From: Amoebophrya sp. A120
Taxonomy: Eukaryota; Protista; Dinoflagellata
Reading direction: 5' to 3'
Assembly (NCBI GenBank): GCA_905178155.1
Contig: CAJINV010000008.1
Location: forward strand, 3,167,303 to 3,231,302
DNA length: 64,000 nt
The notes beneath the pieces were generated by a model, which saw nothing but the letters and a program-made list of their open reading frames with translations, had not been told where the DNA came from and did not search any database. Shown piece after piece: positions 14,011-40,001 of the stretch. The position numbers were made by a program, and so were the translations under genes. Position 1 is the stretch's first letter, and each line of letters starts with the position of its first letter.

Positions 14011-14201
14011 TATTAAAAAAAAAACCTTCACAATCACTTATGCACATTTTTGCAATACAAAAAAACTTTTGTCATGCGCAAAAATGCATCACAGTCAAGA
14101 GTTATAGGCGATTTCCTTTTGTGTTTTTGCAATATAAGAAAAATTTGTCACGCGAGACAAATTTCTGATGCGAGATTGTGGCGGTATTTTTTTCCTGGAT
14201 A
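14011..14201. mobile_element. Introner-like element, degenerate, upstream of the assigned ECM29 ATG
   Basis: TATTAAAAAAAAAACC..ACAATC / GATTGT..GGTATTTTTTTCCTGGATA; DR gaaat/ggaat. The spliced frame is unresolved. Confidence 0.6.
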
Positions 14202-14338
14202 GGAATAGCTAGAGCTTTACTAATATTGACGCAAACGCAATCAAAACAATCAAACTATGTTACAACCCGCTTTTCCCCGGTCGTGATCAACATCGTGTGA
14301 ATGTGTTGGTAGAACAAGTATCTATACATATACAAGAA

Positions 14339-17300
14339 ATGGACCAATATGAGCGGGTGTTACTCCGCCTGGTGGGCACGGAGGACGAAGCTTTTTCTGG
14401 TGTATGCTACGTGTTGCTGCCGATGGTAATGAGAAAGCTTCTGGAGCCGCTCCCCGCAACAGACGCCACCCCCGGAGCGACGCAGAAGAAAGTGATCGAT
14501 ATTCTAAACCACGTGCTGCAGCGCGCAAAGGCCTGTCGGACGATTTTCCTGCCTTTTTTCGGAATATTGGACTTGATCACCACCGAGATGCGCGCGGAGC
14601 GCCAGGGTGTGCCAAGTGCAAACCCCACGGGCCGGCTCCTCTTCAAGAACCTCTCGATGATTTTCCTAGGCCTTGCGATCGAGCGGCTAGAGGAGCTAGC
14701 TAGCTCCAGCAATATCGAGGCAGAGGCAAGTAGATTGGAGCGCTCCAATTCTGGCCACGGTTTTCTGGCGGACCTGATCAAAATCAACAAGCTTCCTACC
14801 GCGGCAGCAACCTTTTTCAAGGCAACGCGGACCGCGAGGACCGTGGCGAGTGAGCTGATCAAAGAGTTTCACCTGTTCCCGCGTGCGCACCAGCCCCAGA
14901 TCTTCCTGGCAGTGCTCCACGCATTCGCCTGCTTCTACCCGACCAACGTGGCTAGTTTGGTCTTTGGACTGACAAACCAGGCAAAGTCGGCCCTGCTAGA
15001 GATCGACGTCGTGGCACAACATCAGCAAGAATTGACTGGGGGCGAAACGGTTTGCGTATGCAACGAAACAAATGCTTTAATAAATACAGTTACACACGAC
15101 TATGTTGCAGAAGTAGTCAGAGAGGCCAGCTCCGTCACGCGCAATGAGATGTACTACAGGACCCTATGCTGTTCATGCCTTTCATGTTGCATGTTATTTT
15201 CCCGTATGATCTATGAACTATGATCTCCGCACTACACCAGACCAAGACGCCGGGAACCGGGCGTCTGGGCCTGGATTACGCCCCCCTCGTCCAGGGGCGT
15301 GAGCCATCTACCACGCCATAGTACCATGCAGACCATACCTGTGATGTAGTAGTTGCTGAATCTGCAATATTCATTGTGCGTCGACTGTAGCACTTTTTTC
15401 CTCGGATAACCGGCCTCAAAACCATTCCACGCGACCTGCACCGAAGTAGAATCCCAGACCGCAGGGTTGCTCGCCTTTCTAACGACTGCCCGCGAGTTAT
15501 CCTGAGTAAAAACGTAGCCACACCATAGTCAAGATGGGGAATCGGCTAGACAAATCCACAAGTTTTGGCTGTTTTGCATGACAAATTTGGATTCGTAGTG
15601 TAGTGCTGGTTGAGCTAGCTCTGCAGCATCACAGATCTAGCATACCATGCTGATTGGAGCTGCATGACAAATTGCAAAACACGACTAGAAAACGCTTCTC
15701 ATGGGGCTCCGCATGAGAAACATTTTCAGCATGCAGATTTGCATTACAACTCTGGCATGGGTACGTTTTTACTCAGGATACGAGTTCTTCTTGATCCCGG
15801 GGAACGCTATTGAAACGAAGCCGCCGGCAATCGCAGGCATGTCGTCTATGAAATGCAAAGATGTTTCTTGGGTCTGGAAATTTGTGATGCTGAAGATTGG
15901 CTGTATCACGAGCACGTGGACACCTCCCTTTTTATCGCATAAGCGAGCCTGACACGGATTTGCGCTGCAAGATGTTGGCTGCTCCGCGTGGAAAGTAACT
16001 GTCGTGCCTCTGTATGACAGGAAGGGGCTTGGGCTTCTGGGCAACGTGGTGCATGTTCACACCAAGAGGGTTGAAGCAAAGTGATGGCGCCGCGCTCGCG
16101 GCAACGTGTTGGTGTTGTATGACAGAGTTCCAAGAGCACTACGCAGTCCAGTCCCGAACTACGACTACACATTTTCAATGCATAGGCTCTGCCTCGTGGC
16201 AAGTTTGGAAAACGAAAATCGAAAAACTTCCCCCCAAGGTGTCGTCCCTCGTTCACGCCAAGACGTTGTTCCTGCAGTTTTGGTATGCGTTGGAAATATG
16301 TCTGGTTTCGGAAGGAGGCAATCTTGTGATGCGGATTCTGATTCTCATGCTGGAAGTGGAACTACGAAGAAAACAAAATAATAAATCTTTGTTGCATACA
16401 TAGCCAGTTATAAAAATGCGCGATTTTTGTCTCCCGGGCGGGGAGACACCTCCGGTCTTGTCAGCACCAGGACCCAGACATATTTCTTGCACTCGATATT
16501 TGCGACTCCAGCATCACGGCGCTCCTGGATTTGCGAGCTGTTCTTCCGACCACGGGGGCCGATGTTGCGGACACCAGTGCGGCGTCTGTAGATCGTCCGG
16601 CGGTAGGCACGAGTCAAAGTAAAGCAGACGAGGTCCTCTACAGTGCTGCTGCCGCGTCTCGCGACGAACCAGTTGAGAACAAGAAAGCGGAACAAGCTGG
16701 TGAGGACAGGGGGACAGAAGTTCCCGTGCAGCAGCAGACAACCCAGAATAAACCAACCCTGCTTGCAGATGGTGACCGCACAGGTGCTCTCCTTGCCCCG
16801 TCGTTGAGAACTAGTACGGGCGGCCCCGAGCAAGATCGTGATCAGGATTCTTTTGTGATGCACAACGCTGGTGGTAAAAACGCTGCCGCAGGAGCGGTCC
16901 TCGTGGCACCAAGTGCAGTGAACATTATCGATGTGGTGCATCATATCGTGAGAAAAAAAGGTTTCACTCTCACTGTAAGTAAGAATTTGTTTTGTTATTG
17001 TTCTTTTTGCAACTTTTGCATTACTAGTTCTTGAAACATGGCAAATTAAACTACACATATGAAGACCCTATCAAGACAAATGCGTCTGGGTCTGTCTCTG
17101 TGTTGCATTCTATGCATCACAAGTAAGTTCACCGTAAAACAGTTTTTTCTTCCGATACACCAGTGCTACCTGTGTTACCTGCTAGGCACCCTCGAGCCGT
17201 ACGAGCAAGTGTCGACGAGGAGCGAGGCCTTGTGGAAGCGACTTGAGCACCGGATCGAGGGTGTCGAATGCAAATATGTCTGGGGCCGGAAAGTTGTAAT

Positions 17301-20300
17301 GCTGGGCTGTGAATAGTGGATGGGATGCTCGGTACTGCACCGCCAAGCAAGCATAATGAGAAATATTCGCGCGGCTTTGCGTTGCTTTTTCCGCATGACA
17401 AGCTCTTTCTAAACGACAAGGGGGGTTCGTCTTTCTAAATGACAAGCTCTTTCTAAATGACAAGCTCTTTCTAAATGAGGACGACCACAGGGGGTTCGTC
17501 TCAATGAAATGAAATGACAAGGAAGATGATGGTCTCTTCTTGGACACGCATCACAAACTCTTCGTTTTCATACAGTCATACGCGACGAGCATGACAAACC
17601 TACTTGCATCCTTCCAGACCCAGACAGTATTTGCACCTGATAGAGAGCCTGGGCGAGCAATCGGTCTCGAAACTGCTACTCCAGCTGATCCGCGTCACCT
17701 CTCCGCAAGCGAGCTCCCGACTCAAAGCCCGCGCGTTGCAGATTCTGCAGCAACGAATCTTGCAGCTGCACCTGGACACACCTTTGCACGTCCTGCTCGA
17801 CGTCGCACCCGCAACCGAAACAAGCGACGACCTGCACGCTCGGGTGCGGGGCCAGGTTGGAGTCCCGGGAGGAACTACGTCGGCGGCGCCCGCGCCCGAC
17901 TATAATGCTGCACCAGCGGAAGTACAACAACACGCAACTACAATTTCCGCCGTGCGGCAGCAGGGGGACGAGCCGCAACTGGCGCAACACGCGGCCATTG
18001 CCGCTACGAGAACCTTGGTCTTGCGTGACGCTGTGGTGGCTTTCGTCCTCGAGTCTCTCGGTAGCACCGTGGTCACGGTCCGGGAGGCCGCTCTGAGCAC
18101 CCTTCTCAACATTGCAGACGTCGTCTTCCCAAAGGCCGCTGCTACCGGGTCCCTTTCCTCGGACGAGGAGCAGTGGAGCGAAAGCTTCGCCGGGGACACT
18201 TCTGCCGTCGGCGTAGCGGGAGGGGACGGTGGATCGCAGTTGTTCCCAGGGCGACCACCAAAAGTCGAGGACGAGGATCATGAGGACCCGAGCAACAAGC
18301 GCGCATCGGAGCTGTTGCACCGCACACTCCTCGGCATCGAGCACACATACTTCCCGACGGCAATCGTCGACGCGAATCTTTCCACCGCGCTCCGGCTCGC
18401 CTTCCGCGCCTTCGGCCGTCTCACAAGGAAGCAAATCCGCAACAGCCAGGAGGCGTTGCGCGTAGCGCCGAAGCTGTTTGCTCTGCTGAACGCCAATCCG
18501 GACGCGAGCGAGGAGATACTCGAAGCGCTGAACGGAGTGCTGCTCTGGTTTGCGGAGTCCACGTATCAAAAGGAAAAATCCCCCCTCCCCATATCGAAAC
18601 GAAGTTTCTGATGCTGGATTTCCGTACACAAATCAGATTTGTCTTGCAGTAGAGGACTGCAAGCATATGCCCAGCCTCAGTCGAGAGGTTTTGACGTAGG
18701 CGCCTAGCATGGCAAACGTGTATGCTCTAAGCCCAACAACATCACAAACCGCCTGCAAAATGCGGAACGATTTCTGGACTTGCCTTCATTCTTGCAAGAC
18801 AGACAGGATTTGAGGTCACAAATGCGCATCACAAATTTTCAGACGGATCCGCTTTCGTTATGGGGAGGGGGGATTTTTCCTTACGATACCACGTCCATAA
18901 AGACGCGCGCGAAGGCGGAAGATCCACCGGAGCCGGTAGGACGCGGCGCCGAACATCAACTAGAGGGGGCCGCCCCCGCCTCCTCGGCCGCCCGGAGCGG
19001 GCACGACAGGATGGGTCGGCGTGCGGCTTTATCCGTCCTGCTCGACCCCCTGCTTTCCCAGAACCCGAAGCCGCTGATCCGGAAGGAGGCGCTGCGCTGG
19101 GTTCTCCACTTGTTCCCGCCGGAGTCAGCGGAGTACCGCTTTTACGCCATCTATGGGAGTGTCAGGATTGAAATCTACAAAGTTGAAATAGCTTGTAATG
19201 CATAAAATCGATACCAGTTGGAAGCCCAATTTCCAAGCAGCGCATGACAAATTTCGGCACCGTCTACATCCACTTTGTCATGCTGTTTAGGGACGACAGA
19301 AGGCGCCTTTTCCTTTTGTCATGCTACTTTAGCAGCTCTATCGCAGACCCCAAAGAAACAGGCTGACAGTCGGCCTCACTTACTTTCCATCCCTGCAAGA
19401 GAGGCACTCGCACTTCATGCCTTGCAATTTATGCATGAGGAATTATTTCAACTTTTTCGATTTCAATCCTGACACTTCCATACCGTCCAGCGATGCGGGG
19501 ACCAGGACCCCTCGGTCGCCAGCATGGCCGCGAAAGCCTGCGACGCCAGCCGCAAGTGTCCCACCGTGAACGAGATGATGCGTTTTCTTCGTGAGGGAAG
19601 CATTCTGCTGCCGTCAGAACTGGCCAAGAAGTGGCCCGAGGTGCCACAGATTCCCAAACTGGAGAAGGGAAGCCTCGTATGGCTTGCAAATAGGTCTGGG
19701 TCTTGAAAGTTGGAACTTCTGATGCTAACTTCGGACTCCAAAAAAATTTGTATTGTATGACCAGCAAGAGGAGTCTAGCTTGTGCTTCGCGGGGAGGGCA
19801 TTTGTCATGCGGAATATTAGGTATCTGGAAGCAATCAGAAGAGAGACAATCTGTGATGCTAGGGGATACATCACAGACGTCACGGGTCATGTAAAATCTG
19901 CATGACAAGTTGCAACCTTCCAGACCCAGACATATTTGCATTTGATACCGCGCCTTCCTCGTCGAATTCGTCGTCGCCCACTGCGTATGCCTTGCAAATA
20001 TCCCTGGAGGTCTGGAAAGAGGAAGGGTTTGTCATGCTTGTCTGGCATGACTGAAGAGATTGTCATGCGTGTGGTCCAAGAGGAGACCGCTCTTTTGCTT
20101 GTCATGCAATAAAACGCAGTTTTTCATGCGGAAAGCGCAAGATTACGTCGCGCAAATAAGTTGTGCTTATTTCTCATGCTTGGCTGTGCATTACGATTAC
20201 AGACGAGAATTCACTATTCACAACTCAACATTACATAGTTTTTAGTTTCCAGACATCCAGGGATATTTGCATTTGATACTGCGAGGCCGAGCCGTATCCA

Positions 20301-23300
20301 ACAGAAAAGCTGCAGCAGGCGCATAGTTGTACTAGAAAATGAAAATTCATCGTGCATGTGTGTTGCTGCTTTATTTCGCCTGTCAGCGCCAAAATTTTTG
20401 TAAAAATAGATGCTGGGCCGCTGCAAGGAAGACACCACAAGAATTTTCCATCGTCCGATAATAGCACATGCACAGTCAGATGTAGAATGATAATGAATGA
20501 ACGTGCTGTGGACCAGCATGACAAAGATGAAGATCGCTGCCCAAAAATAAAAAATGTGTCCTCTTTACCTTTGGGCATCGACCAGCCAGCAGTGGATTTC
20601 GTGTTGCGGCGCAAAAAGCAGAATGAATGACAATTTCACTTTTTCTCTGGTACTTATAGGCGTCACGTGCGTTTCTGTGCTATAAGCCTTCAACAACCAC
20701 GTTTGATATGGCTGCAGATGATGGAGTGCTGGGAGCAGCGAGACCTGTCGACGCCGCCGAGCAGGACGGAGAGAGCACCTCCTCGTGCAAAAGTGGAAGC
20801 AAGACCACACTGAAACGCCCCCGTGCGGACTCAGTCGTGAACACGGCCGACCACGTCGTTGCTGGAGCTCCTGCCCGCCCCGGCGCACTAGAAGGTGCCA
20901 CACAACTCGAAAGAGCTCCCGAAGCTGCAGGAATTGCAGGCGCTGATGCGCCACGGGCGGCCCGTCCTCAGCACCAAAAAAAGTCCGTGGTCTCCGTGCA
21001 GGATGCCAAAGTGCTGCTTTCCCTGGCCGATGCCTCGAGCTCGTTGAAAGCCTATCGGCTCCTCTGGGAGTTGGCGCAACACGACTTGCATCGGGAATTC
21101 GCTGAACGTGTGGAATTCTTCGCAAACAAGGCTTTCCTCTCCGACAACGCGCTGGACTGGGCCCACTTTCTACAGGATATCCTAGACAAGTACGATTCAC
21201 CTGCTCCTGTCGAGGTTTCTGCTCAAGTCGGTCCTCCTGCTCGCGCTGCAGTCGAACCTGAGCTGCAGCTCTTCGGAACCGACCAGCTAGAAGCGGCGCA
21301 GGAGCTCGCTGCTAAGCGGAAGACGCTGTTAGCAGAACTGTATGGCCGCTACTACGGACGAGACGAACTACTAAAAACGCCGAGCTATGCATTGCAAATA
21401 TCGATCTGGCTCTGCAACGATAGTACTAGACTTGTCATGCTGACCTCCTCCCATGCTCCCGCGAATCCTCCATGCTGCGCTCCTCCCATCCTCTGTCATC
21501 CGCATCGCGAAGTAGCAGTGCTCCTTTGTAGTGATGTAAAAACGCAATTTGTCGTGCGCGTTGCATATTCCTCGCTCAAAAATTTGTGATGCTTGGCTGC
21601 GTACTGCGGTCAGTTTCTTTCGGATTCGCGACATGGTAGCAAGACAGCTTTCAAGAAGACCCAGGTATTATATTTGCATTCGATACGAGCGGTCTGTCAG
21701 CTACAACTTCGCGCGCCGCCGCGGCTCCAGCGCCCTCCTCCGACGATTTCCTGGGCGACACCGTGCTCCTTCTCCTGGCTGTCCTCTATCATGAGGGAAA
21801 TAATGCCTCCTCCCTTCTATGTGGAAAACGTACAAAAAGCGTGATTTGTGTTCCCTGTTCGTGTGCTCACGCAAATCCAAATGTTATGTTGTCCTCTGTC
21901 TTGCATAAAATTCGGCAAGGAAGGCCTGCTGGACAGGCAATCATCTGTAAAAATGCGGTTAAGCCTACAGAACAGTAGGAAGGTCTACCGTTCTGAAGAA
22001 GTGCTAGACCACATCTAGAAAGAACCTAACGAGGCTTGGAATGCGTCTACTATATTTTCCCTTGATGCAAGAGATGGTGCAAGAATTTGTGTACAGGCAT
22101 AGATGATGCAGCATCAGAAATTCCCGTTTGGGGAAGGGGGGATTTTCATCTGAACATCCTCGTGGTTCCCGTTTCAGGAAGCCAAGCCACGGTGACGGAG
22201 CGCGACACTGTGCCCACGGGCCAGAAGATTTTGGACAAGCTTGCGGCCTCGAGCCTTGACTCAACCCGGAAGCTCGAGGCGTATGAAAGCCTCAGGTTGG
22301 AAATTCTCAAAGTGAAAATAAATTTGTAATGCAAAAAAACGACTCCAGTTGAAGCACCATTTCTAGTCGGCGCATGACAAATTTTCCTGGCACTCAAGTC
22401 TTCGTGTCTGTCATGCTAGTTAGGCAAAGGTGTGCCGTTCTCTCGTGCTAATCTATCAGCAGCCCAATTCTACTGAACCCGTAGAAGCACAGTAGTCGGC
22501 CTCCGTAGTTGCGTTCTCTGCAATACAGTCTTTTTGGTGTCGCATTTTATGCAATTACATACAAATTATTTTCACTCTGAGAATTTCCATTCTGAGGCTC
22601 TCATAAGGCGGCCACCGTACTGGTAAGGAAACTCGGCAGGGACACAGTGCTCCAGGCCCTGTCGAAGAAGATGATAGACCCAATCCCGGCCTCATCTACG
22701 AGTAGTGGCGCGGCAGGGTCGACTATGAAAGTGCACAAGAATTCCCCCTCCCCCTCATTTGTCATGCAAAACCCCAAATACAGGCTGTGCCTCTTGGCAC
22801 TGTTTGCATGACAAGTTCTGGTAGCCCAAACAGCACTAGACTCTAGCGTACATTTGTCATGCAAAACCGGCATTCGTCTTGCGCTTGCCCGATGCTTGTA
22901 TTGCCGTTCATGCTATACAAATGATGGGCAGGGGGAGTTGTGCATTGTCATATCGACGAGGACGACCAAGAGTGTGATTCCGGACGACAAGCTGGCCATC
23001 GGTCTATCGAGAGGAAAAATCCCCCCTCCCCATATCAAAACGAAATTTCTGATGCTGGATTTGGATACACAAATCAGATTTGTGTTGCACAAAGGCATGG
23101 CGGCCAGATCCGCAGGCTAGCTGAGGGCGTATGGGTCTAGTTGCTCAGCATGGCAAACGGCCTCCCTTTAGGCCCAACGGCATGACAAATCGCCTCCATA
23201 ATGTGGCGGAAGCTTCTGCCCTTGTCTTCTTGCAAGACAGATGTGATTTGTGACCTCAAATCAGCAACACAAGGCATACCTTTTCAATATGGGGAGGGAG

Positions 23301-26300
23301 AATCTTTCCTCTCAATACGGTCCGGCAGGGAGCTTCCGCGACGCCTTCGCCTTCGGTGCTGTGCGCTTCCTCGCTGTCTGTGGCGACGTGGAGCGGGTTA
23401 TGACAGTGCACAACTCCCCCTCTTCGTCCCCCTCATTTGTCATGCAAAATATCCAATTCACCCTTTGCCTCTTGGCCCTGTTTGCATGACAAATTCTGGT
23501 ACTAGCCCAAATAGCACTATACAACTCCAGTGCAAGTTTGTCATGCAAAACCAGCATCCTTGCTGGTGCTTGTATTGTCGTTCATGCGATACAAATGAGG
23601 GGGAGGGGGAGTTGAGAACTGTTATACGGGTGCTGGAGATTAGCCAGCGCGACCATTGGCGCGACCGCGACGACGCGGTCTGCGTCGTCGCCCTTGCGCT
23701 CGTGCTGGATGCGGGGCTGGACATCTCGACAATTTTGTCGCACATGGGCGAGGGCGAGGCAGGTGATAATATACTTCCAAAGGGCCAACAAGAACCTCCT
23801 CCGCATCAACAGAGCGGCACTACAGCAGCTGACAGTACAACTTCTACAGCACCTACAACAACGTCTGGCACGAATGATAAAATCACGACATCGGACATCC
23901 ATCAAAAGGGGGTCTCTGTAGTGCCCCTGAGGCATGGCGTCGTCTGGCTTCTGTGCCGGCTGAAGCACGAGCAAGAGAAGTTGCATGGCTCCTTTTTCTC
24001 TACTAGTGCCTCACGTCAGACTTCCGCCTCTACTCCAGATCCCGGCTTGTTAAACGAGGCCACCGTGGAACTGCTGGCCCGCATTTTCGTCCGGGGTCTG
24101 CACCTGCCCGTCGCGAACCTGTTTGTGGCGGATGCGGCAGCGAAAGGCCTTGTCCGGCTATTCGCACTCACGTTCAAGAACGACACGACAAATCAGGCTC
24201 GTCCTGGACGACGTGCTGCTGCTGCCAGCAGTACTACTTGCCTCACAAAAACTTCCGCTTCCCCACCTGTCGAGCCAGGTGGTGAACTCGAAGGAGATGC
24301 AGGGACTGGCCCTGCTGCTCCTGCGGGCAGCACCTCGCTGGTTGTCAAAACCATTTTCGCCTCCGTGCAGCAGCGGACACACAACGAGAGCGCCCTGGTC
24401 GCCAAGGAGGAGGACTCCGTGCTTGCGAAATCCAAAGACAGTGCCGTTCTCGCGGCGCGGGAAAGGCAGAATGAACTGAAGGAGATGCTGTTTCTCTGCC
24501 GGCAGCTGGGAAACTTGAACTTCATCATTGCGTGCTTGGACCAGCCCACGGGCAGCTCCGTCGCGCTCGCGAGCATGGCCGCGATGCATGAGGACGCTGC
24601 GAGTTCACGGCTCGCGGAGGTCGCCAAGAAGCTCATGAACCCGAATAGCACTTTATCAAATGTAAAAATGTCTGGGTCTGGAAGAATGCGCGATTTGTCA
24701 TGCAGCTTTTCCATGACCCATGAGGTCTGGAATGCAGGACCTAGCATGACAGATTCTGTGCGATCTTTCTCATGCCTATCCTGCATGAGAAACTACCTCC
24801 CGACTTGGTCAAAATTGGGCGACTTTTGGCAATCATGCAACACAGATTTTTGCATGCTGCAGATTTAGCATGACAAGTTGCAATCTTCCAGACCCAGACA
24901 TTTTTACAGTTGATACACTTCCGCTATGAGCAACGGCTCGAGTTCCACCGGTCCGCAGCTCGCCGGCGTATTGACAACCCTGAACGCGCTGATGAGCATG
25001 TCCGAGAAGGACCAGCAGCGCCTGGCGGACCTGATGGATCCGCAGAAGCGCAAGGAGGCGGAGGAAAAGCAAGAAGCGGAGAAGCGCGCCCGCGTGGCCC
25101 AGGAGGCCAGCGTGAGCCAGCTCAAGAAGCAGCAACAGACGGCGTCGGTGGCCGGGTCGGGGTTCTTCGACGCGCTGACCATCCAGGCCGCCGACGTACG
25201 GTCCCTGGCGCTCCCGGCGCACCTTCGCGCGGCGGTAGCCGAGAAAAGGCTGGTGCTGCACCAGTTTCCGCCGTACTTCTTCCACAGTAACGGAAAGCTC
25301 CGGGAAGTCATCGTTTCGATATCATACGTAAAAACGACCCCACCCCGTAGTCAAGCTGGGAACTCTGCCAGTACATAAACGACCCCAAACACGCCGTACT
25401 TTAGTCAAGTTGGGAACTTAGCAACACAAACCCAGAAGCTTTCGGAGCAACGCATGACAAATTCCAGTCCGTAGTGTAGTGCAGTTTAGCAAGAGCAGCC
25501 GCACGACAAATCCATCTGCTCATCCCGTTTACAGCATCACAAATTCCAAAACGCAATTGGAAATGCCTCTCAACATGGAGATGCGCATTACAAGAGATGC
25601 GCATTACAAATCTTCCTGTGGTCGCAAATCTGCATGACAACTATGGGGTGGGAGAGTCTTTACTCAGGATATTCGATCTCCCTGAACTACTTCGGGATCG
25701 AGCGCGTGCAGGACATCGGTCCCTGGCCCATATGCACTGCAAATATGTCTGGGTCTGGAAACTTGTGATGCTGAGTTGCGTACCATGAGCATCATGAGGA
25801 GGCCACAACTCTTGATGGCTCAGCATGAAAAGTTTCTGAGCTTCTACTTCTAGGTACTATTGCCTACTCTGCATGACAAACTTCTGCGTTTCTGCATCAC
25901 ACAAAAATGGCGGCTTTAGGTAAAAGCGTGCGTGACAGACTCGAGAGTTATCTTGCTAGCCGAGCAAGACAAGTAGTCCCGCATTCTTCCAAAACGCCAG
26001 ACAGATTTGCACTGGATAGCTCAAGGTGTACCGCAACCTTGTGCGGATCGGGTTGAGCCCATCGGTGTCTCGCGTGAGTTTACGGGAAGCCAGCTGCCGG
26101 TGCCTGACGCAATTGCTACGGTCGGGCAGACGCTGGAGGGAGCTGGAACCCGAGTGGCAGGCCCTTTGGGAGGCGGTGATCCAAGTCACCGACGACCTCG
26201 AACCGAAAATCGAGGCCGTCGCCGGCCCACTATCACGCACTCTGCGATCCCTGACCATCCGTCTCTGCAACAGCTCCGGCCAACTGGCGTCGCAGCGCTT

Positions 26301-29300
26301 TGACGCCCCGCCGGGGTATTACACTAAAAAGTCCCCCCCCGATCCCGGAAGCGGGAAAAAATAATGTTTGTGTATACATAACAAGATTTTTAAATGCGAA
26401 ACTCTTTCGGTCTTTTCCTCTGAGCTACGAGTAGTCTTTCTACTGCAGGAGAACCTTCTATGCGTATAATTTCACAAGGATCGCTTGCATGACAAGTGCC
26501 GCGCTTGCTGGGCCTGGAGTCTTTTGCAGTACAAATTTTTGCTATTCACCATTGAAAATCTGCGACGCTGATACATGAAAGAGGGCGAGCGTTCCCATAA
26601 TTGGGAACTGGAACAAGCTTTGCCATACAAAAACAAACGCTTCCACGTTCTGGGGTCGTGGCGGCACTTATTTTCCATATTTATACGAGGAACCAGCTAT
26701 TTTCTCAGGGCGCAGCGAACGCCACCAGTAGTACTGGCGTTGCGGCGAGTGGTTCTTCCTCCGGAGCACCTGCAGCGCACCACCAGCGCCAACAGTACAT
26801 TGGCTCCGCGGAAGTGCAGGCGGCTCTGTCGAAAACACTCCCCATGCTGCTGCAGTTCCTGCACCTGTACCCGCACGCCCGGTCCCTGTGCTTCGATGTG
26901 ATCCACGAGGTCGCGCAACTCACGGCCAACGCGTCGTTGTTGAAGCCCTTTCTGCTGGAGCTGGTGCCGCTTCTTCTGGAATCACTGAACGCACTGGAGC
27001 ACCGCAAGGTCGCGGAGTACCAATGGGACTTCAACCGGGCAGGCGCCGGCGAGAAATACGAACAAGCCCGCATCGCGGCGTCCAAAGACTCACCCAGCTT
27101 CCGGCTGCTGCGGCGCCTGGTGCCCAGTTTCGACCGGCCCGCCCTGTTGGAGCTGTCCGGGACGCTGCGGAAGTTAATGCGGCAGGGGGTGGGCTCCAAC
27201 ACGAGGTGCGGGGTCTGCGATTTCTACTCCATGCTGGCCGCGGAGATGTACCGTGAGGAAAAATCCCCCCTCCCCATATTGAAAACGTATGCTCCTAAAA
27301 ATTTGTGATGCTGATTTGTGGCCACAAATCCTGTCTCTCTTGCAAGGAGGCAAATCCAAAGAATTCGCAGCCTTAGGGAGGCGATTTGTGATGCTGTTTC
27401 ACGTACATGGCAGGCCTCTGTCATGCTCAGCGCCTAAGTACAACAAAACACCCCTACGCAGGCTGCGGCTTTGCTTGTAGTGCCTCACTGCAAGACAGGG
27501 CTGATTTGTGTACACAAATCCAGCAACAGAGGTTTCCGCTTCAATATGGAAAGGGGGGATTTTTCACTTTGATAAGATGCCGCATGTGTTCTCGCAGCCG
27601 ATCGCGTTGCAGACTTTGCGGGCCATTGCGAGCTCGCTGGTGGACGAAAGCATCGCGGTCAAGTCCGCAGCAGCGTTATTGTGACGAAAAATCCCCCGCC
27701 CACCCCATGTCGAAAAGTAGAATAAGTTTTGTGATGCTAGATTTGCATACACAACTCGGACTGTATTGCTAGAAGAAGGCCAAGAGACGCAGCTGCGGCC
27801 TCGTTTGCGCACCATTTCTCTACTCGATGTGTCCCTCTACTTCCAGTTGCTTCCTGTCATGCTGAAGGCGCAAGGCTTTGGCTTTGTTTCCCACGCCGGC
27901 CAGCACTCCAGTCCACATGTCTCTTCCGTTCTAGCTGGCATGACGACGTGACTTGCGATTTTTGCAAATCGTGCTACACCAGTCCTCCTCTGAGTATGGG
28001 ATGAAGGAGGGACTTTTCGTTGCAATACGCGTCCGCGTTTGCGAGTATCGCCAAACGGGTCGACGACAAGACGAGCCTGGCAGAAATCATCGAGAAAAAG
28101 TATCAGAATGAAAAATGCCCCCACCCCCGAACTTGAAAGCATTTGTATTGCAAACCTTTCCAAATGAAACATTCGCCCTCTTGCACCTATCAGCATCACA
28201 GGTTTCCAATCGTGAATAGCGAAAATTTGTATTGCAAAAGACCCCAGCAAGAGCGGCGCTTGTCATGCAAGCGATGCGATACACGCCTAGACTCTGCATC
28301 AGAAAGATTCATACTCCTTTCATGCATGACAAAAAGGTTTCATTTGGAAACTTCGCATCACAAATTTTTGCAATTTGAGGGGTGGGGGGCACTTTTCACT
28401 GTAATAAAAAGCTGCTGCCCGGAGCAGCAGACTTTAATGATGATGTTGAAGACGTGAATGTGGACGACGCGGCGCGAGGAGTAGGACTACCAACGCTATC
28501 AAGTGCAAAAATGTCTGGGTCTGGAAGAATACAAACTTGTGATGCGCATTCCAGAACACAGGAAAATCTCTCATGCATAGGCAGCAAAAGTTGCCCACTT
28601 TCTGTCACCAAAATGCGACTTGTCATGCGGATTCGGCATTGCGGACGCTTCTCGAATCCTGTGATGCTAGAGCTTCCATGCCAGACCTTCTGCGTCATGC
28701 AAAAACAGCATGACTCTTCCAGACCGAGACACTTTTGCATTTTATAAACGCCCAAAAAAGGCCAAGCGGAGCCTGCTGTTGAAGTGGAGCCGGGGACGAA
28801 ACAGGTGTCGACAGTTCTCCGCCTAGACGAGGGCGGCCGAGCAGGAGAGAACCCGAAAGAGGTCCGCGGTGAAGTAGAAGTAGATGTCGCAATGTCACTG
28901 GACCAACGCGGGCCGGGCAGTGGTATGATGGGAACAAAAAATCCTCCCCATATTGAAAAGCCTTACTTACTTCTGAAAATTTGTGATGCTATGGCTAATT
29001 TCTGGCCACAGACCGTGCCTGTCTTGCAAAGGGGCAATTCCAGAGAGTCCGCCTCAGTACGCCGGCGGTTTAGAATTATGCAGTCGCGCCCATAGGGCAG
29101 GCCCCTGCTATAATGCAGCTATGGGCCTACGCGACTAAAACACCCCTTCGCAGCCTTAGCTTCTACCTGCGGTCGTGCCATACTGCACACAAATGATCCA
29201 GCAGCAGAAAGCCGCGCTTCAATATGGGACATCAGCGGGGGGATGATTTTTCATTTTGATAAGTGAGCACCGATCTTTGCTAAAGACCTCGGCATCCGAC

Positions 29301-32300
29301 CTCGGGTTTCTCACCACCTCGTATCCTGATGAAAAACGTCCCCACACCAGAGTCAAGATGGGAAACCTGCTAGACAGATCAGCCAGCCTTGGTTGTCTGG
29401 CATGACAAGTTTCTTGTCCTCGTCGTGTAGTCCTGTTTAGCTAGTTCAGAAGCATCACAGATCTAACATGGCATGCTGATTATAGCATCACAAATTCAAA
29501 AACACGAATAGAAAACGTTTCAAATAGGGCTCCGCATGAGAAACTTTTTTGGCGTGCAGAATTGCATGACAGCTCTGGGGTGGGGACGTTTTTACTCAGA
29601 ATACCTCGGCAAAGGCTTTGTCCGAGATCCACCTATCAACTGCAAATATGTCTGGGTCTGGAAAGTTGTGATGCTGTCTGGCCAATCATGTGGACGTCTG
29701 CATTGACAGCCAAGCATGACAAGTTTTGGAGTTGCTATAGTCTTGTCTATCTGCATGACAAGCTGCGTTTCTGCATGACAGAGAAGTGTGGCTTTTGGGT
29801 GGCGCGCATGACAGACTTGATAGCCATGCCAGACTAGCACGACAAATCTCGCAATCCCCCAGACCCAGACACTTTTACTTTTGATACCACCGCCGAGGGT
29901 GCGATTTGCGTTCGCTCCAATTGCGCGACCGCCTGTGCAGCCAGTGCTTTTTTCACCAGTTCCACGCGGTGGACCGGGTCAAGCAAGAATGGACCGCATT
30001 GTGGCTGGAACTGGGCTTTTCTGTCCGGCAAGCCCTTACTCTCGAGCCCGTCGTCACCGTTTTAGCCCGCGCGCTGCAATCGCAGGACCGCGCAACGCGG
30101 ATGCAGGCCTGTCGCGCCGCGGTACAACTCTCGCAAGACCTTCTCGCAGGTCGTACCACCACTGGTTCAGGAGACGAGGACGCGAATAAGGACCTGCAGC
30201 GGCTGGCAGCGGCGCTGGCGAAATACGAGAGACATGCAACCCCCCCCTCGGTCGTCATGGTCATCGTCGCCTTTAATATTATTGGTAAATTATTTTTTCG
30301 CATGCAAAGATGCAATTCCAGGGCAGTACTACCTAGCCTTCTAACTAGCTGCGTCGTCTTGCATAGCACTACAGGCCGTACCTGGATCTATTTTTGTCAT
30401 GCAAACGCTACAATTCTATCCTTGTCGCGATTGCCGCGCATCACGTCCTGCAAAGGGAAGGGGAGTTGTGCACTGTGATACGAAAAGTGTGGAAACCTAC
30501 AAGCTCGCGTACGTCGGGGCAAGTGTGGTATTGCGCGCCCTGGTCACGCTGCTGATGCACCTAAATGTAGGAACAAATATGACATTCACCGGCGCAAGAA
30601 GCGCAGATGAAGCGGCGGGCGACAAGGACCACGAAGTGGGAGGTGAGGACTCAACGTTTCTTGCAAAAACCGCTTCTTCCCCTGGTGCTCTTGGCACGCG
30701 GCAGGTGCAGGCCTGCGTGGAGATGGTGAGGTCGACGCGCGTGGAGGATACCGATCGCGCGGAAGCGCTGTGCATTCTGACCGACATGGTCGCGAAACTG
30801 GGGCGCGGCATCGCACGGGAGATTCCCGTGGCCGATCTGTACAGGTGGATCGAAACCAAGCTGGACCAGAAAGAGTATGGTGTTCTCAAACGTTACATTC
30901 TCAACTGTAACATGAATCTGTAATGCAAGAATGGCAAAAGCCAAAGGGGGAAGATTGCAAAACTTGCATTACAAATGCCACGCTGATTTAGGTGGTGTTT
31001 AGCCCTTCGCAAATTTGTCATGCGAAGCAGCTTGATCTTGTTGATGATGATGGTAGTTTTGCATCACAAACTCACGTAACAGTTGAGAATGTAACGTTTG
31101 AGAACTCCATAAAGAAGTCGAGCTCCGCCAGGAAGCAGAGAAGGACTTTGCCTTCGTGGCGAAAGTTCGTGGACGCGGCCCGGCCGAGAAGCTGCTTTCG
31201 CCGGTTTTCGATCTCTGGGCCGCGGTCCTGGACGGCCAAGACGTATCAAATGTAAAAATGTCTGGGTCTGGAAGAATCTAAACTTGTGACGCTGTCTCTT
31301 GATTCGAAAAGGATTTGTATTGCATGACCAGTAAGAGGAGTAGATTTTGTGCTCCGCGGAGAGGGCATTTGTCATGCGGAATGGGCATCAAGAATCCCTC
31401 CAAAGCCCTGTGATGCTAGGGCATGCATTACAGGCATAATGGGTCATGAGAAATATGCATGACAAATCGCGCACTCTTCCAGACCAAGACATTTTTACAT
31501 TTGATAAGACGGGGGAGGTGACGATTCTTATACGGTTGCACGACCACCAGGAGTTGCATTTTTATGCATTCTTGAAAATGTCGATCTCAATCTGGAAAGA
31601 TGCACACTTGTCTTCATGCGCATTTCTGATTTTTGCGAAGAAAATCTCTTCAATGCATAAACAGCACAATAAGGTACTACCCAAATATTGGCACTTCATT
31701 CTATCGAGCAAAGAGAAGATTACATGTTCTCTCGCTGCAAAAAATTGATGTTCTCAAAGCCTGTGAAGATGCCAGTAGGGCTCCTGCATACCACGTGACC
31801 TTCAGCGTCGTGCGAAATGAGCACCCGACCTCGACCAAGAAAAGCTGCACTATTCTTCCAGAGCCAGACACGACATTTGCATTTGATCAGTACCGGCACC
31901 ACGACCTGCCGGGGGGACCACGGGGCCGCCTGCCGCAAGGACGACGCAGCAACTGCTCGGCCGCTATCTCCAAGCGTGGCTTCGCGAATACGCACACGCC
32001 ACCGGGACTCTGCGCGTGGCGATGCTGCGCGCGCTGCGGCGTATCCTGCTCAAGCATTTCTCAACAGTCCGCGTCGGGGGCGGAGTAGATGTTCATACAA
32101 CTGGTGCCAACGTGGACCACAACGCCGCAGCTGCCACTGCCCGTTTTTTCGAAAGCGATTTTTACGGCGAAATGGTTCCAAGCAGTGGAGCAGGACAAGG
32201 CATCATGACCACGCCGTCGAGTGGAACAAGAACGACCGGCAGAGACCTGCTTCTCCAAGTTGCAAAGATCGCCCTCAACACCGTCAACGAAGATTGGTCG

Positions 32301-32789
32301 AGAATCCGACGCGCGGGCCTGATCCTGCTCGCCGCCTTCGTTCGAGTAGACGTAGACCAGTTGTTGCGGACCTGTGTGCAGTTGGAAGAGTTGGAAGCGT
32401 TCTTGCTCACGCTCGAGCACGCTGAGACAAACAACCTGGACGAGGCGCTTCACGAGGATCTTGAAGAAAGACAGGCACTGCAAACTTTGAACGCGTTCAG
32501 AAATATGCATTGCAAATATCGATCTGGGTCCGGAACGAAGAGTGCAGGTTTGATTTGGCATGCTTGTCTCACATGACAGTTGGATCTGTCATGCGTGAGC
32601 ACGCAAAAAGCCTCTTGCCTGTCATGCAAAAGTGCAGTTTTTGCCAAACAGAAAGCGAAACACAAAGATGCCCAGAAACTCTTCGGGCGTGGCTGCGTAT
32701 CGCGATAGGGTCAGCATTCACGGACTAGCAGCCCAATTTTCCAGATACAGACATATTTGCAATTAATAAGAAATGAACTTCGCGGATAA
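14339..32789 (+). CDS. ECM29: Proteasome adaptor/scaffold ECM29 (HEAT repeats). 34 exons split by 33 non-canonical inverted-repeat introns, ~2801 aa. An extra 5' exon from ATG 13959 is possible.
   Basis: MDQYERVLLRL...KKVIDILNHVLQR and LREASCRCLTQLL...LWEAVIQVTDDLEPKI...LTIRLC resemble ECM29. Removing each element plus 5 nt leaves 8406 nt (2802 codons), in frame at every junction and ending at TAA 32787-32789. Confidence 0.85.
15057..15408. mobile_element. IR introner (old, family F-like)
   Basis: TIR matches at 15 of 20 positions. DR is decayed (ttgcg/accgg). Removal plus 5 nt restores the frame. Confidence 0.65.
15498..15780. mobile_element. IR introner family C
   Basis: Perfect 19-bp TIR TATCCTGAGTAAAAACGTA; DR cgagt/cgagt. 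Confidence 0.92.
15847..16184. mobile_element. IR introner family A (degenerate)
   Basis: TATG...CATA ends with GGGTCTGGAA; DR tcgtc/ggctc; frame restored. Confidence 0.7.
16284..16498. mobile_element. IR introner family A
   Basis: AAATATGTCTGG / CCAGACATATTT; DR tttgg/tttgc. Confidence 0.85.
16944..17157. mobile_element. IR introner family F
   Basis: TATCG..AGAAAAAA / TTTTTTCT..CGATA; DR catca/cacca. Confidence 0.85.
17262..17642. mobile_element. IR introner family A, with an internal 18-bp tandem duplication
   Basis: TGCAAATATGTCTGGG / CCCAGACAGTATTTGCA; DR gaggg/gagag. Confidence 0.85.
18564..18888. mobile_element. IR introner family B
   Basis: ~30-bp TIR with AAGGAAAAATCCCCCCTCCCCATA; DR ccacg/ccacg. 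Confidence 0.93.
19152..19482. mobile_element. IR introner family D
   Basis: TIR TATGGRAGTGTCAGGATTGAAATC; DR ccatc/ccgtc. Confidence 0.92.
19678..19947. mobile_element. IR introner family A
   Basis: TGCAAATA.GTCTGGGTCT TIR; DR cctcg/ccgcg. Confidence 0.9.
19986..20278. mobile_element. IR introner family A variant
   Basis: TGCAAATATCCCTGGA.GTCTGGAAA TIR; DR ctgcg/ctgcg. Confidence 0.92.
20295..20684. mobile_element. IR introner (degenerate)
   Basis: TATCCAACAGAAA / TTTCTGTGCTATA; DR agccg/agcct; frame restored. Confidence 0.75.
21386..21685. mobile_element. IR introner family A
   Basis: TGCAAATAT / ATATTTGCA; DR cgagc/cgagc. Confidence 0.9.
21787..22156. mobile_element. IR introner family B (degenerate, right end ACA)
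   Basis: C-rich/G-rich TIR remnants; DR tcctc/tcctc. Confidence 0.82.
22282..22605. mobile_element. IR introner family D
   Basis: ~40-bp imperfect TIR; DR aggcg/aggcg. Confidence 0.92.
22724..22952. mobile_element. IR introner family E
   Basis: TATGA..GTGCACAA..TCCCCCT TIR; DR tcgac/tcgac. Confidence 0.92.
23005..23317. mobile_element. IR introner family B
   Basis: TATYGAGAGGAAA...CCCTCCCCATAT TIR; DR cggtc/cggtc. Confidence 0.93.
23399..23626. mobile_element. IR introner family E, close relative of 22724-22952
   Basis: TATRACAGT...CAACTCCCCCTC TIR; DR cgggt/cgggt. Confidence 0.92.
24654..24915. mobile_element. IR introner family A
   Basis: 32-bp TIR TATCAAMTGTAAAAATGTCTGGGTCTGGAAGA; DR cactt/cactt. 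Confidence 0.95.
25320..25671. mobile_element. IR introner family C
   Basis: GTAAA..CCCACCCC TIR; DR ttcga/ttcga. Confidence 0.9.
25731..26018. mobile_element. IR introner family A
   Basis: TGCAAAT.TGTCTGG TIR; DR gccca/gctca. Confidence 0.88.
26317..26685. mobile_element. IR introner family G (degenerate)
   Basis: TAT...ATA ends; interior similar to 28101-28406 in reverse; DR cgggg/cgagg. Confidence 0.8.
27249..27574. mobile_element. IR introner family B, inverted relative to 23005-23317
   Basis: GAAAAATCCCCCCT TIR; DR agatg/agatg. Confidence 0.92.
27677..28027. mobile_element. IR introner family B variant
   Basis: TATTG..ACGAAAA.TCCC TIR; DR agcgt/cgcgt. Confidence 0.88.
28101..28406. 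mobile_element. IR introner family G
   Basis: TGAAAA.TGCCCCCACCCC TIR; DR aaaag/aaaag. Confidence 0.92.
28497..28746. mobile_element. IR introner family A
   Basis: TGCAAAA.TGTCT.GGTCTGGAAGA TIR; DR aacgc/aacgc. Confidence 0.92.
28924..29261. mobile_element. IR introner family B (degenerate)
   Basis: AAAAATC.TCCCC TIR; DR agtgg/agtga. Confidence 0.85.
29322..29603. mobile_element. IR introner family C
   Basis: AAAAACGTCCCCAC TIR; DR cctcg/cctcg. Confidence 0.93.
29634..29886. mobile_element. IR introner family A
   Basis: TATCAA...TGTCTGGGTCTGG TIR; DR ccacc/ccacc. Confidence 0.92.
30224..30480. mobile_element. IR introner family E (degenerate)
   Basis: Right end GGGGAGTTGTGCACTGTGATA; DR cgaaa/cgaaa. 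Confidence 0.85.
30876..31111. mobile_element. IR introner family H
   Basis: 33-bp TIR TATGGWGTTCTCAAACGTTACATTCTCAACTGT; DR aagag/aagaa. Confidence 0.93.
31244..31506. mobile_element. IR introner family A
   Basis: TATCAAATGTAAAAATGTCT.GGTCTGGAAGA TIR; DR agacg/agacg. Confidence 0.95.
31563..31888. mobile_element. IR introner family A (old, DR lost)
   Basis: AAATGTCG...TCTGGAA / TTCCAGA...CGACATTT. Removal plus 5 nt restores the frame. Confidence 0.7.
32504..32768. mobile_element. IR introner family A, last ECM29 intron
   Basis: ATTGCAAATAT TIR; DR agaaa/agaaa; the join reads ...FRNELRG*. Confidence 0.9.
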
Positions 32790-35120: not shown

Positions 35121-36847
35121 CGGTGGAGCTCGCTACCTCATTTGGAGGCAGCGACTGTCTAAGCGAAGCACTAACGCGCTCGCATCAGAACTATGAGTGA
35201 GAGGCACCCGGGCGATAGCTACGGCGCGCGGCCCGGCATGATTGCGCCGGCGTTTGCGCCGCAAGAAGAGCGCGCTAACGCGCACCCAACCGGGCCCTGC
35301 AGGGCACTGGGGGCACCAAGGAAGCTAGCGCATTGGGCGATCGGCCACGCGAGCATGGGTGCGACCCCCCTTGTGGCAACGGCAACGGGGGAACATCAAT
35401 TTCGAAATGAAACCTAAAACAGACTATGGAAGTGCATCGTTGAATCCGGACACCCATCCACACATATACGATCATCCGAACCTCCTACATTAGAATCATT
35501 TTCCTTTTCGTTCGTTTGATTTCGCAATTGGAATTGGTACGCTCGCCCACACGCCGACAAATAATACGGCTGAGTGATAGATCAAGATTTCCCGCCGATA
35601 AGTCCGCTCACCACCCACAGCCTGACAGACATACGACCTTGCAGCAGGGTGTTGCCAGGAGGATTCAATCCATCCATCGGCATTGCTTTCACATGAGAAG
35701 ATGGAAAAGCATTCCAATGCTATCTGATATGTTGAGTCGCTCTGTGAGGAGCGAGAGATCGCTCGGCCTTTCGAACAAAAATTGAAAAATATCTGCTGAT
35801 CATGTTTTTAAGAAAATATGGCGCCGCGGTTACGGAAGAGAGGTCCGTCCCGAGCACCTACAGCAGATAGCTGTCGTTCTGCCGTGTTGGAACGACAGCG
35901 ACGAAGTTCATCTACTCATAGTCGGGAAGAAGCCCAGTGGTGACCAGCATCAATCATTATATTCGGCGCTACTCAGCAACTCCAGGGATGACATATTATT
36001 CGTCTTGCGCGCCCGCGCACATGATCAGGTACAACCGCCAGCCTCCCCACGACGACCGTGTGCACCAAGTGCTTGTGAACGCGCATCTACCCCAGGGAAG
36101 CCGCTAAAATCCCCCTAGCGGAAGAGGGAGCCCACAGAAAAAGCCACGGAAAAAGAATCGCACGAAGACTATCTAGAAGATACACAAGTCACGCACGTAC
36201 GACCATTCCCAATGTGCAAGTTTCAAAATAGTTTGAGATCGTTTCCAATGAAGAGGCATGCACCGAAGATAACGAAGAATGTTGCTACGATGTAGCTACA
36301 TCCGAAAATTACGAAAAGAAGAATCTGTGACGGTGCGGGGTCACGGCAACTTTAGTATTATGTCTTGAGCGAGGGACGAGTTCCGATAAGTAAAATCCAG
36401 AAGCACGGGACCCACTTTCGAACACAATTACCGCACGTCCTCCGGGCAACTCACGGTGGTGGCGAATGCCTGCCGCGATGCTGTGTAGCTCGCAGCATTT
36501 TCTGCTCGCTGGCGTTTGATTTGCTTTATCAGTGGTTGACAAAAAATCTAGCGTAAATGGGTGCTTTGATTCATCAGTGCAGAGGTCCGCAACTCTTCAT
36601 GGGGCATCGCAGTTCGTGCTTGTTCACGCTTCCCGCGTTGCCACGGAAAAACGATTCCTTTAACAACCGTCGACCGAGATGTCATGTTTGGAGTATTTTT
36701 GTGTGGACTTGTTCAACATCTGTGTGAAGGAATTAAAAAATTGTTTTTTCATTCCTGCGCCAACTCGCCAAGAACCACGACTACACCAGAAGACTGGGAC
36801 CCGATGATCGTTGATGACAGCCAAGAAAGACTTGTTTATCTTCCTCC

Positions 36848-38039
36848 TTACTTCTTCTTCTTCTCCAGCTTCTTCTTGTAGAAGGCCAACTCGTCGCCTT
36901 CCAGGATGTAGCCATCGCAGCGGCCGGTCTGGCCCGGGCGGGAGCTGATGCAGGCGAGCAGACGACCGGAGTTGAACTGGTCCTCCAGGTTGGCGTCGAG
37001 CTTGTGCACGCGACCGGCCTGCTTGGCCTTCACGTGTCCGGAGATCTTCACCTCCTCCTTCTTCTCCTTCTTCTTGCCCAATTCCACACCGTAGTGCTTG
37101 GAATACCTGCGTTTGCGTGTTTGTTTCATCTTTTTTTGATACCCGTGCGTGCACAGCCATAAAGTTTATTTCCATTGTTCATCGTAGGACTATCATTGTA
37201 AAGTCTGTGACGACCCATAAGGTCATTATGGAAAACGGAGATCTGAAACATGAAAACTTTTTCTTTGAAGAAAGAAAGCTCCTGGTGAAAGAAGTGGTCC
37301 TTCAGCTTCACCACGACAGATCTATCTGCATTGACAACAAGTGCACTTTCACTTCTTCGGGCATGAAATTTAGAAAAACAAATACCACTGCTTGAAGGGC
37401 ATGGCGTCGATCTGGACGATGGTGTTCTTGACCAGGGTCTTGGTGCGCACCAACTCGTTGGACACGGAATTGTACACAACGTCCATAACACGGACCTTGC
37501 GCGTGCAGTTCTCGCTGCCCCACGAGTAGTTACCGCTGTCCAAACGCAAAGCGCGGAACTTCTTGTTGGCACCTGATTTTTTGTTCATTCGGTGATATCC
37601 TTGCTTTATTCGTGAAAAGTTTTCTAGGCAAGAACGTGTTCGTCGAGCGAGCGCAGCGCGACGAGTCCTAGCGCGCGAAATTTTTTGCAGAAGTAATTTG
37701 TAGATATTTCGACCAAGAACCCCAGGTGGGAGAATGAAAAAAGCACTGGATAAATAAAAGTGGACCTTCGTTCGATGCTGACGTGTATGCAGGGAAGAAG
37801 TTGTAAGTGCGCGAAATAGTAATTTTGTCAGAAAATACGCAGTTTTTATTGTTATGTTACGACTAGTTGGTGGGAAAAAAAACTTTTATACCACGGCAGC
37901 GGACGACGCGGACGCGCTTGTGGCCCAGACGGGTCATGGCGGACGGGCGGCCCATCTCGTACTTCCTCTTCTTCTTGTGCACGTTCACGCGCCCACCGGT
38001 CAGGCGGTGCTTGTGGCGGCTGTCACGAGTGATACCCAT
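36848..38039 (-). CDS. RPS8: 40S ribosomal protein S8 (eS8); exons 38039-37892, 37572-37386, 37106-36848
   Basis: [16 protein letters not shown]...[15 protein letters not shown]...[17 protein letters not shown]. Two GT-AG introns give in-frame joins. Confidence 0.97.
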
Positions 38040-39720: not shown

Positions 39721-40001
39721 TATGATTGGACAAAGTAACAAATATCTAACAGCTCCTCCGACTTCGCGCAAACGGCTAAGTCGGGAAAATCCAGGAAGTT
39801 CATGCGTATCTGTCACATGTGTACTGCAAAGCTTTCAAATTCCGCCCAAAATTGAAAGCATTTGCAGCAGGCATGTGCGTTTTTGGCTTCAATTTGCAGC
39901 CTCTACAGTACACATGTGACGAATTTCTTGCGTTTTCCCGACTTAGCCGCTTGCGCGAAGTCGGAGGAGCTGTTAGATATTTGTTACTTTGTCCAATCAT
40001 G
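39721..40001. mobile_element. Foldback MITE, ~69-bp TIR, 8-bp TSD AGAGGTAG (hAT/P-like TSD length)
   Basis: 39722-39789 is a near-perfect reverse complement of 39933-40000. TSD at 39713-39720 and 40002-40009. Confidence 0.93.

Follow-up and report, generated by a model that had tools for sequence, protein, structure and literature searches.

The window analysed here, a 64,000-nt stretch of Amoebophrya sp. A120 (contig CAJINV010000008.1, positions 3,167,303 to 3,231,302), contains a plus-strand gene for the proteasome adaptor ECM29 (Pfam matches of the exons to PF13001, E-value 2e-8, and PF24492, E-value 3e-16) which is interrupted by short elements with terminal inverted repeats (TIRs). In-gene elements number 42 after curation, 32 in ECM29 and 10 in minus-strand genes; a first scan of the window had returned 34, including 33 inside genes, and the remainder of the 42 was added by hand. 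Elements are named by their first position and listed in Table 1. When the 32 ECM29 elements were taken out together with 5 nt each, a 2,539-codon frame was obtained, running from 15482 to a stop near 32787. This frame ends early when even one of the 31 elements lying upstream is left in, and retention of element 23005 places a stop in it. On the minus strand, a 527-codon frame was recovered at 53.3-57.1 kb once seven elements were taken out. We are highly confident of the description that follows: the elements lie in both orientations in about equal numbers and are removed exactly, at one register.

A larger set of copies was taken from a scan of metagenome contigs, which gave at least 148 loci among the matches listed, nearly all from one assembly and picked by the motif of one family; all loci counts below (401, 279 and 321) rest on these. 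The loci carry the same families as the window, with up to 96.8 % identity. No element was detected in two viral-contig matches and two matches in other assemblies. The loci yielded 401 distinct elements to a strand-symmetric detector, which recovers 36 of the 42 window copies and returned none in four shuffles. Twenty copies (three duplication mismatches or a length below 140 nt) and 102 copies whose host strand could not be called confidently were dropped, leaving 279. Host strand was called with a codon model, for which 35 of 35 confident cross-validated calls, of 42, were right; one 381-nt piece in the training set held three stops. Together with the window copies this gives 321 stranded copies, those from the loci being putative introns by reading frame.

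The 5-bp target duplication is exact in 28 of the 42 window copies and in 300 of the 401 copies from the loci. TAT stands at 307 of 321 5' ends and ATA at 300 of 321 3' ends, and an A-tract occupies TIR bases 11-15, so that the layout is TAT-N7-A-tract, mirrored as T-tract-N7-ATA at the other end. A repeated subterminal motif had 137 matches in 12,213 nt of elements and 14 in the 51,787 nt outside them. With TIRs, target duplications, many copies and insertion in either orientation, the elements are non-autonomous DNA-transposon insertions resembling MITEs (miniature inverted-repeat transposable elements). No Rfam match at the gathering score was found in 22900-31600.

According to the first-pass annotation, one family sits in both directions within the same gene, because the start of 27249 matches the reverse complement of the end of 23005, and the end of 31244 that of the start of 24654. 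Such start-to-end matches are uninformative on orientation, since any TIR yields them, and the interiors were therefore aligned in transcript orientation with 50 nt cut from each end. In self-BLAST, 27255-27565 matched 23311-23014 on the minus strand (71.6 % over 313 nt, E-value 4e-37) and 31243-31507 matched 24916-24653 on the minus strand (73.9 % over 272 nt). The interior scores (opposite orientation/same orientation/best of 300 shuffles) were 153/49/-7 for 23005-27249 and 79/-1/-1 for 24654-31244, so that both pairs are homologous and align best in opposite orientation, above all 300 shuffles; non-homology, which had been named as an outcome that would defeat the claim, was not found. Element 18564 gave the same picture against 27249 (opposite 205, same 53). 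Two further pairs had been noted to read alike on the plus strand although their host genes lie on opposite strands, and this was borne out: 54657-54963 matched 28101-28406 (76.5 % over 311 nt) and 55579-55765 matched 27728-27935 (73.6 % over 208 nt), both plus to plus, one host being ECM29 and the other a minus-strand gene. Their interior scores were 187/15/-5 and 149/-7/-11, respectively. A pooled null for these scores was distorted by length differences, and only per-pair shuffles were used.

When orientation was tabulated against host strand per family in the window and the loci, it proved indifferent. The 17 families hold 237 of the 321 copies, and each of the 13 families with at least four members occurs in both orientations (34:35, 24:17, 14:18, 11:7, 7:8, 6:3, 7:1, 4:4, 4:4, 3:3, 4:1, 2:3 and 3:1), none biased at p<0.05 (lowest p against 1:1 = 0.07). 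Nearest neighbours share orientation in 114 cases and oppose it in 123. A one-directional reading of two families in the window (3:0 and 4:0) was rejected, since among all 321 copies they stand at 4:4 and 14:18.

Removal was followed in runs X1-X4, which come from one sample and are guessed to be RNA; they hold 0.35-0.41 of the sequence words of 22900-31600, as exons alone would. Record 2 of X1 covers 24282-32498 in 3,683 nt, exactly the 3,683 nt predicted with 15 elements out, and its printed exon pieces show no other letters. Record 6 of X2 covers 23650-32498 in 4,315 nt, again as predicted. These contigs lack relatives of opposite orientation alike (24654 as well as 31244 and 28497; 28101 as well as 26317). 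Read support is confined to the 32 ECM29 elements: removal is supported for 28 by a printed joint or an exact span and for two (23005 and 23399) by depth, and no support was seen for two (15498 and 15847). The 10 minus-strand elements, among them 54657 and 55543, are putative introns. For 23005, record 7 of X1 shows a depth of 1.42 in the next exon (predicted 1.32 if the element is out, 0 if kept) and of 1.22 in the element's own bin (predicted 0.89 if out, 2.30 if kept). Of 30 bins, 7 in the raw-read run X7 and 4 in X8 had depth, all at repeats, and nearly all of these reads run on into unlike sequence. The central claim of the first-pass annotation, that excision is independent of orientation, is supported: in RNA-like contigs elements have been taken out exactly whichever way they face, as seen from a joint for 24654, 27249, 27677 and 28101 and from the span for 31244, while 23005 is supported indirectly, by depth.

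The register of the cut was read where the two copies of a duplication differ, as the contig then shows which bases survive. Owing to diverged 5-bp duplications, 11 of the 23 junctions with printed boundaries were informative, and a cut after base 4 alone fits all of them. The junction of 31563, where only two of five duplication bases are identical, sets the cut exactly after base 4 by itself. The removed piece is thus the element plus 5 nt, N-TAT...ATA-NNNN on the transcript, the cuts falling 1 nt ahead of TAT and 4 nt past ATA, and this leaves the gene exactly restored. A cut that followed the direction of the element itself would put roughly half of the copies at the mirror register, which was excluded at all seven junctions able to tell. 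A firm family assignment and informative junctions in both directions did not coincide in any single family. Because the cut is asymmetric on the transcript and the U at +2 is kept more strictly than its mirror base (counts below), the machine that removes the elements reads direction.

The reading to which we give about an even chance is that a relaxed spliceosome removes the elements, reading their symmetric end sequences and using neither AG nor an interior branch signal. The transposase would insert elements without regard to host strand and, because both ends carry one motif, either orientation would offer nUAU at the 5' end and a U-tract plus AUA at the 3' end. The nUAU would match +2 to +4 of the genome's GUAU donors; both introns of the RPS8 gene in the window start GTAT. 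The 3' cut would be measured 4 nt from AUA and not found by scanning to an AG, and the long hairpin, which would be a DNA-transposon legacy and not a selected signal, would probably help to join the ends. In Amoebophrya nearly all spliceosomal proteins were found, and 15 % of canonical A120 introns have the same repeat layout (PMC7789003). Table S4 of the same paper gives T at +2 for nine of nine predominant motifs of A120, and an initial TT for nine of nine motifs of A25. A spliceosome adapted to TIR-derived introns has a precedent in Fritillaria (bioRxiv 10.1101/2025.08.15.670264; PMC11282704).

Several observations weigh against a relaxed spliceosome. Introns with no G at +1, no AG and no branch motif lie far from known spliceosome chemistry. 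The 5' dinucleotides (n=279) were GT 93, AT 84, CT 55 and TT 46, with +1 free and G not preferred, and the 3' dinucleotide is random, AG occurring in 26 of 279, as by chance. GT and AG occur together at the true register in 10 of 321 copies (expected 10.0). The branch-like YTRAY was present in sense only in 33 copies, in antisense only in 41 and in neither in 234 of 321. T at +2, which counts in favour of a spliceosome, was found in 278 of 279 copies and its mirror A in 269 of 279, a skew (discordant 9:0, p=0.004 uncorrected) that was predicted beforehand but fails correction over 27 positions and rests on 10 copies. The window has 42 of 42 and 41 of 42, respectively, so that U at +2 is found in 320 of 321 overall; the next two bases have no skew. 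A donor bias for G at +5 was rejected, as the window counts (17 against 8 of 42) are reversed in the loci (73 against 97 of 279). The RNA side comes from a single sample whose RNA nature is a guess, and the 279 copies in the loci are candidate introns by frame. U1 snRNA was undetected in both published Amoebophrya strains, and the motifs of Table S4 depend on the aligner's placement of ambiguous junctions (PMC7789003).

Selection for a donor G at +1 was also considered and rejected: the 18 G of 42 in the window are matched by C at duplication base 1 (17 of 42), and in the loci by exon composition. In the loci, C stands at the fourth TIR base in 5' ends more often than in the mirrored 3' ends (69 against 39 discordant, p=0.005 uncorrected), a skew that runs opposite to the window trend.

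The first-pass annotation had proposed that recognition depends on the symmetric terminal stem and not on directional interior signals. In its strongest form this is a separate, non-spliceosomal cut-and-ligate machine, of the kind put forward for nonconventional introns in Euglena, that would read the paired UAU/AUA at the hairpin base and cut at spacers of 1 and 4 nt, an explanation that we regard as a real possibility short of an even chance. The absence of AG, +1 G and a branch motif fits it. The hairpins are strong (z -6.4 for 23005 and -10.4 for 27249), TIR bases 1-3 are complementary in 810 of 837 cells, and the same principle is at work in Euglena introns, where CAG/CTG has spacers of 3 and 5-6 nt (PMC12501133). 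The half of the proposal that sets aside interior signals is supported, as no directional 3- to 6-mer inside elements passed Bonferroni correction (n=321), in keeping with the AG and YTRAY counts. The stem half fared less well. G-U pairs are not in excess over A-C on the transcribed strand (175:204 over 16 nt, 313:310 over 30 nt and 601:588 over 45 nt), and among the 161 of 321 copies folded the sense strand is not better folded than the antisense (mean difference -0.07 kcal/mol), its end-pair probability being slightly lower (p=0.001). Of the 28 RNA-supported copies, 8, among them 27249, have a predicted end-pairing of less than 0.15, and 31563 has a broken terminal pair and an unchanged register. 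The +2 U skew and the GUAU donors point instead to shared donor reading. These pairing tests are weak for young copies and redundant stems; they withhold support from the stem model but do not refute it. The step from symmetry to a stem also has a gap: whichever way an element lies, its symmetric ends present identical linear signals at 5' and 3', and introners that have ordinary splice sites form introns in both orientations as it is (bioRxiv 10.1101/2020.10.14.339549). A more specific version, in which a non-spliceosomal machine needing no AG, branch motif or +1 G would measure both cuts from the mirrored three-base motif and any TAT-ended transposon with a 5-bp duplication would make a perfect intron wherever it lands and whichever way it points, seems to us rather doubtful.

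It is improbable that the elements are skipped before RNA processing, by DNA excision in some life stage, like the internal eliminated sequences of ciliates, or by polymerase bypass at the hairpin. Such a process would be orientation-neutral by nature, and the duplications and subterminal motifs are DNA-transposon features. In the DNA-like run X5, however, which may be the source of the window, the elements are still present at their sites (20252-22311 as a single piece), with no exon-exon joint among the 15 of its 49 joints that were listed. One RNA-like contig (X3 record 15, depth 2, which may be DNA) crosses an exon-element border, and a register asymmetric in the transcript frame is unexpected for DNA excision.

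Hairpins flanked by direct repeats are classic template-switching substrates, and since the RNA nature of X1-X4 is a guess, the joins could be reverse-transcriptase template switches at direct repeats across hairpins, or X1-X3 could be DNA of an empty-site strain. We consider this very unlikely: the ECM29 frame stops early when any of the 31 upstream elements is kept, 15 elements are gone together from one contig with clean exon pieces, and the register is unchanged at 31563 despite its diverged duplication. That an ordinary spliceosome uses GT..AG, present or evolved for each orientation at some register, is hardly credible, for although 26317 reads GT..AG and canonical introners working both ways are published for Aureococcus and Polarella (bioRxiv 10.1101/2020.10.14.339549), GT..AG at any of six registers is found in only 19 of 321 copies and the printed joints skip exactly the element plus 5 nt.

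When compared with known systems, the elements very probably belong, judged by their anatomy, to the class of the introner elements that PMC7789003 (Farhat et al. 2021) describes within the non-canonical introns of Amoebophrya sp. A120. In those, the inverted repeats begin with TAT and go on with seven looser bases and then an A-tract; direct repeats of 5 bp are given in the Fig. S19 legend, the length is about 240 nt, families are many and GT-AG is lacking. A TAT-N7-AAA TIR, a direct repeat where exon and intron meet (5 bp here, 3-5 nt in the class), repeated families, non-GT-AG ends and removal from RNA-like contigs were all found here. The splice position relative to the hairpin is called variable or unknown in that paper (Fig. 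3 and S23 legends), whereas it is fixed here; our register is compatible with one sentence of the paper, which puts four bases of the direct repeat upstream of the 5' end. Its available text makes no statement on element orientation, and the two of three supplement mentions of 'orientation' that were listed concern genes.

Introners of Polarella glacialis (classes 2, 3, 6, 7, 8 and 10) and Aureococcus anophagefferens likewise form introns in either orientation, with the duplication absorbed by splicing (bioRxiv 10.1101/2020.10.14.339549). Unlike the present elements, which have no AG, +1 G or bias, they carry or recruit GT/GC/GA and AG, and an orientation bias is reported. The nonconventional introns of Euglena (Nomura et al. 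2025, PMC12501133) also lack GT-AG and have complementary motifs near the ends, fixed unequal spacers and a proposed MITE origin. Their motif is CAG/CTG and their spacers measure 3 and 5-6 (TAT/ATA, 1 and 4 here), the next exon starts with a purine, and they belong to another eukaryotic supergroup; orientation is not discussed in the available text. The Euglena signature N3-CDG...CHG-N5-6 was not found, the ends here being N-TAT...ATA-N4. Introns of Fritillaria borealis are similarly derived from TIR transposons and are removed by an adapted spliceosome; they prefer the ends AG-AC and AG-AT, whereas only the +2 U is fixed here and the 3' dinucleotide is free (bioRxiv 10.1101/2025.08.15.670264; PMC11282704). 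With canonical U2 introns the elements share the U at +2 but not GT (GC/GA)...AG or a directional branch motif.

The element class, and the creation of introns in either orientation by introners with canonical sites, are therefore already known. As far as searched, orientation at about 1:1 with no canonical sites and the register N-TAT...ATA-NNNN are new; no published statement of unbiased orientation or of a fixed register was found for such elements in a search whose coverage left subscription journals largely outside. How these non-canonical introns are removed is called unknown in PMC7789003 and in a 2024 review (PMC11282704). As a concrete rule, N-TAT...ATA-NNNN is set on the transcript, holds for either orientation and keeps only the +2 U; it makes that question testable and would put right the gene models of such genomes. 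How these transposons can flood exons is explained by it as well, since each insertion would be silent at any site and in either direction.

Table 1 Host genes and elements in the window (elements of ECM29 are on the plus strand; the register is the duplication base after which the cut falls)
Feature	Position	Strand	Remarks
ECM29 host gene	14338-32789	+	at least 32 elements; introns at 15050-15480 left out of model
Element	15498-15780	+	frame only; no RNA support seen
Element	15847-16184	+	frame only; no RNA support seen
Element	16284-16498	+	register at most 4
Element	16944-17157	+	register at least 3
Old element	17262-17642	+	register at least 4; next piece starts 17647
Element, 18564/27249 family, orientation A	18564-18888	+	joint 18558>18889 in X2 record 10
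Element	19152-19482	+	register at least 3
Element, largest family, orientation B	19678-19947	+	diverged duplication; register at least 3
Element	19986-20278	+	
Element	20295-20684	+	register at most 4
Element	21386-21685	+	
Element	21787-22156	+	
Element	22282-22605	+	
Element	22724-22952	+	
Element, 18564/27249 family, orientation A	23005-23317	+	duplication CGGTC; depth suggests removal
Element	23399-23626	+	
Element, largest family, orientation A	24654-24915	+	duplication CACTT; joint 24648>24916
Element, family of 15498/29322/41416	25320-25671	+	joint 25314>25672
Element, opposite to 19986 and 53815	25731-26018	+	register at least 3; joint 25728>26022
Element, relative of 28101 in opposite orientation	26317-26685	+	GT..AG at common register; register at least 3
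Element, 18564/27249 family, orientation B	27249-27574	+	duplication AGATG; 5' end TAC; joint 27243>27575 in X1 and X2
Element, opposite on transcript to 55543	27677-28027	+	joint 27672>28029
Element, reversed on transcript relative to 26317 and 54657	28101-28406	+	joint 28094>28406
Element, related family, opposite to 24654	28497-28746	+	joint 28491>28747
Element, 18564/27249 family, orientation B, older copy	28924-29261	+	family hidden Markov model 146.9 vs 42.7 bits; removal by exact contig span
Element	29322-29603	+	
Element	29634-29886	+	
Element	30224-30480	+	
Element	30876-31111	+	register at most 4; previous piece ends 30869
Element, largest family, orientation B	31244-31506	+	removal by contig span (185 = 185)
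Old element	31563-31888	+	duplication 2/5 identical; 3' end ATC; next piece starts 31893; cut after base 4
Element	32504-32768	+	
RPS8 gene	36840-38039	-	two canonical introns; without TIR element; 197-codon frame
Third host gene	40744-41695	-	strand by codon model; partly reconstructed
Element of third gene	40744-40953	-	
Element of third gene	41416-41695	-	
Second host gene	53300-57140	-	weak CEP76 peptidase-like match, below cut-off (Pfam E-value 4e-5)
Element of second gene	53448-53756	-	
Element of second gene	53815-54066	-	
Element of second gene	54247-54597	-	
Element of second gene	54657-54963	-	reads like 28101 on plus strand, so opposite on transcript
Element of second gene	55543-55862	-	reads like 27677 on plus strand, so opposite on transcript
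Element of second gene	55932-56185	-	
Element of second gene	56307-56558	-	
Extra element of second gene	56620-56769	-	makes eight in working list

At the start of ECM29, no single intron joining 14338 to the 2,539-codon frame was found when TAT/ATA or GT-AG ends were tried, and the gap in the gene model at about 15050-15480 probably holds two or nested introns. An element with the same ends lies just upstream of the ECM29 start codon (14011-14201), in the 5' untranslated region or in intergenic sequence. In an SPFH gene on the minus strand, 42963-43302 is an old element-like intron which fits the frame as GT..AG, with its 3' cut 5 nt past ATA and not 4; judged by its frame, it may possibly be an intermediate between canonical and element introns. 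Apart from the introns of RPS8, GT..AG candidates had been picked out of several alternatives that kept the frame, and no conclusion is drawn from them.

Repeats of other kinds are also present in the window. Two long near-perfect palindromes at 9471-9799 and 39722-40000 (88 % and 78 % self-complementary) have other end types, and a 500-nt repeat pair (9875-10361 and 11189-11702, 71 % identical) falls outside the TAT class. Between 33000 and 35000 lies an intergenic block of 34 % G+C with convergent gene clusters on both sides. A Copia-like long terminal repeat (LTR) retrotransposon on the plus strand (58013-64000; RVT_2, E-value 6e-23) runs past the end of the window, and its LTR pieces at 58013-58174 and 63839-64000 are 100 % identical.

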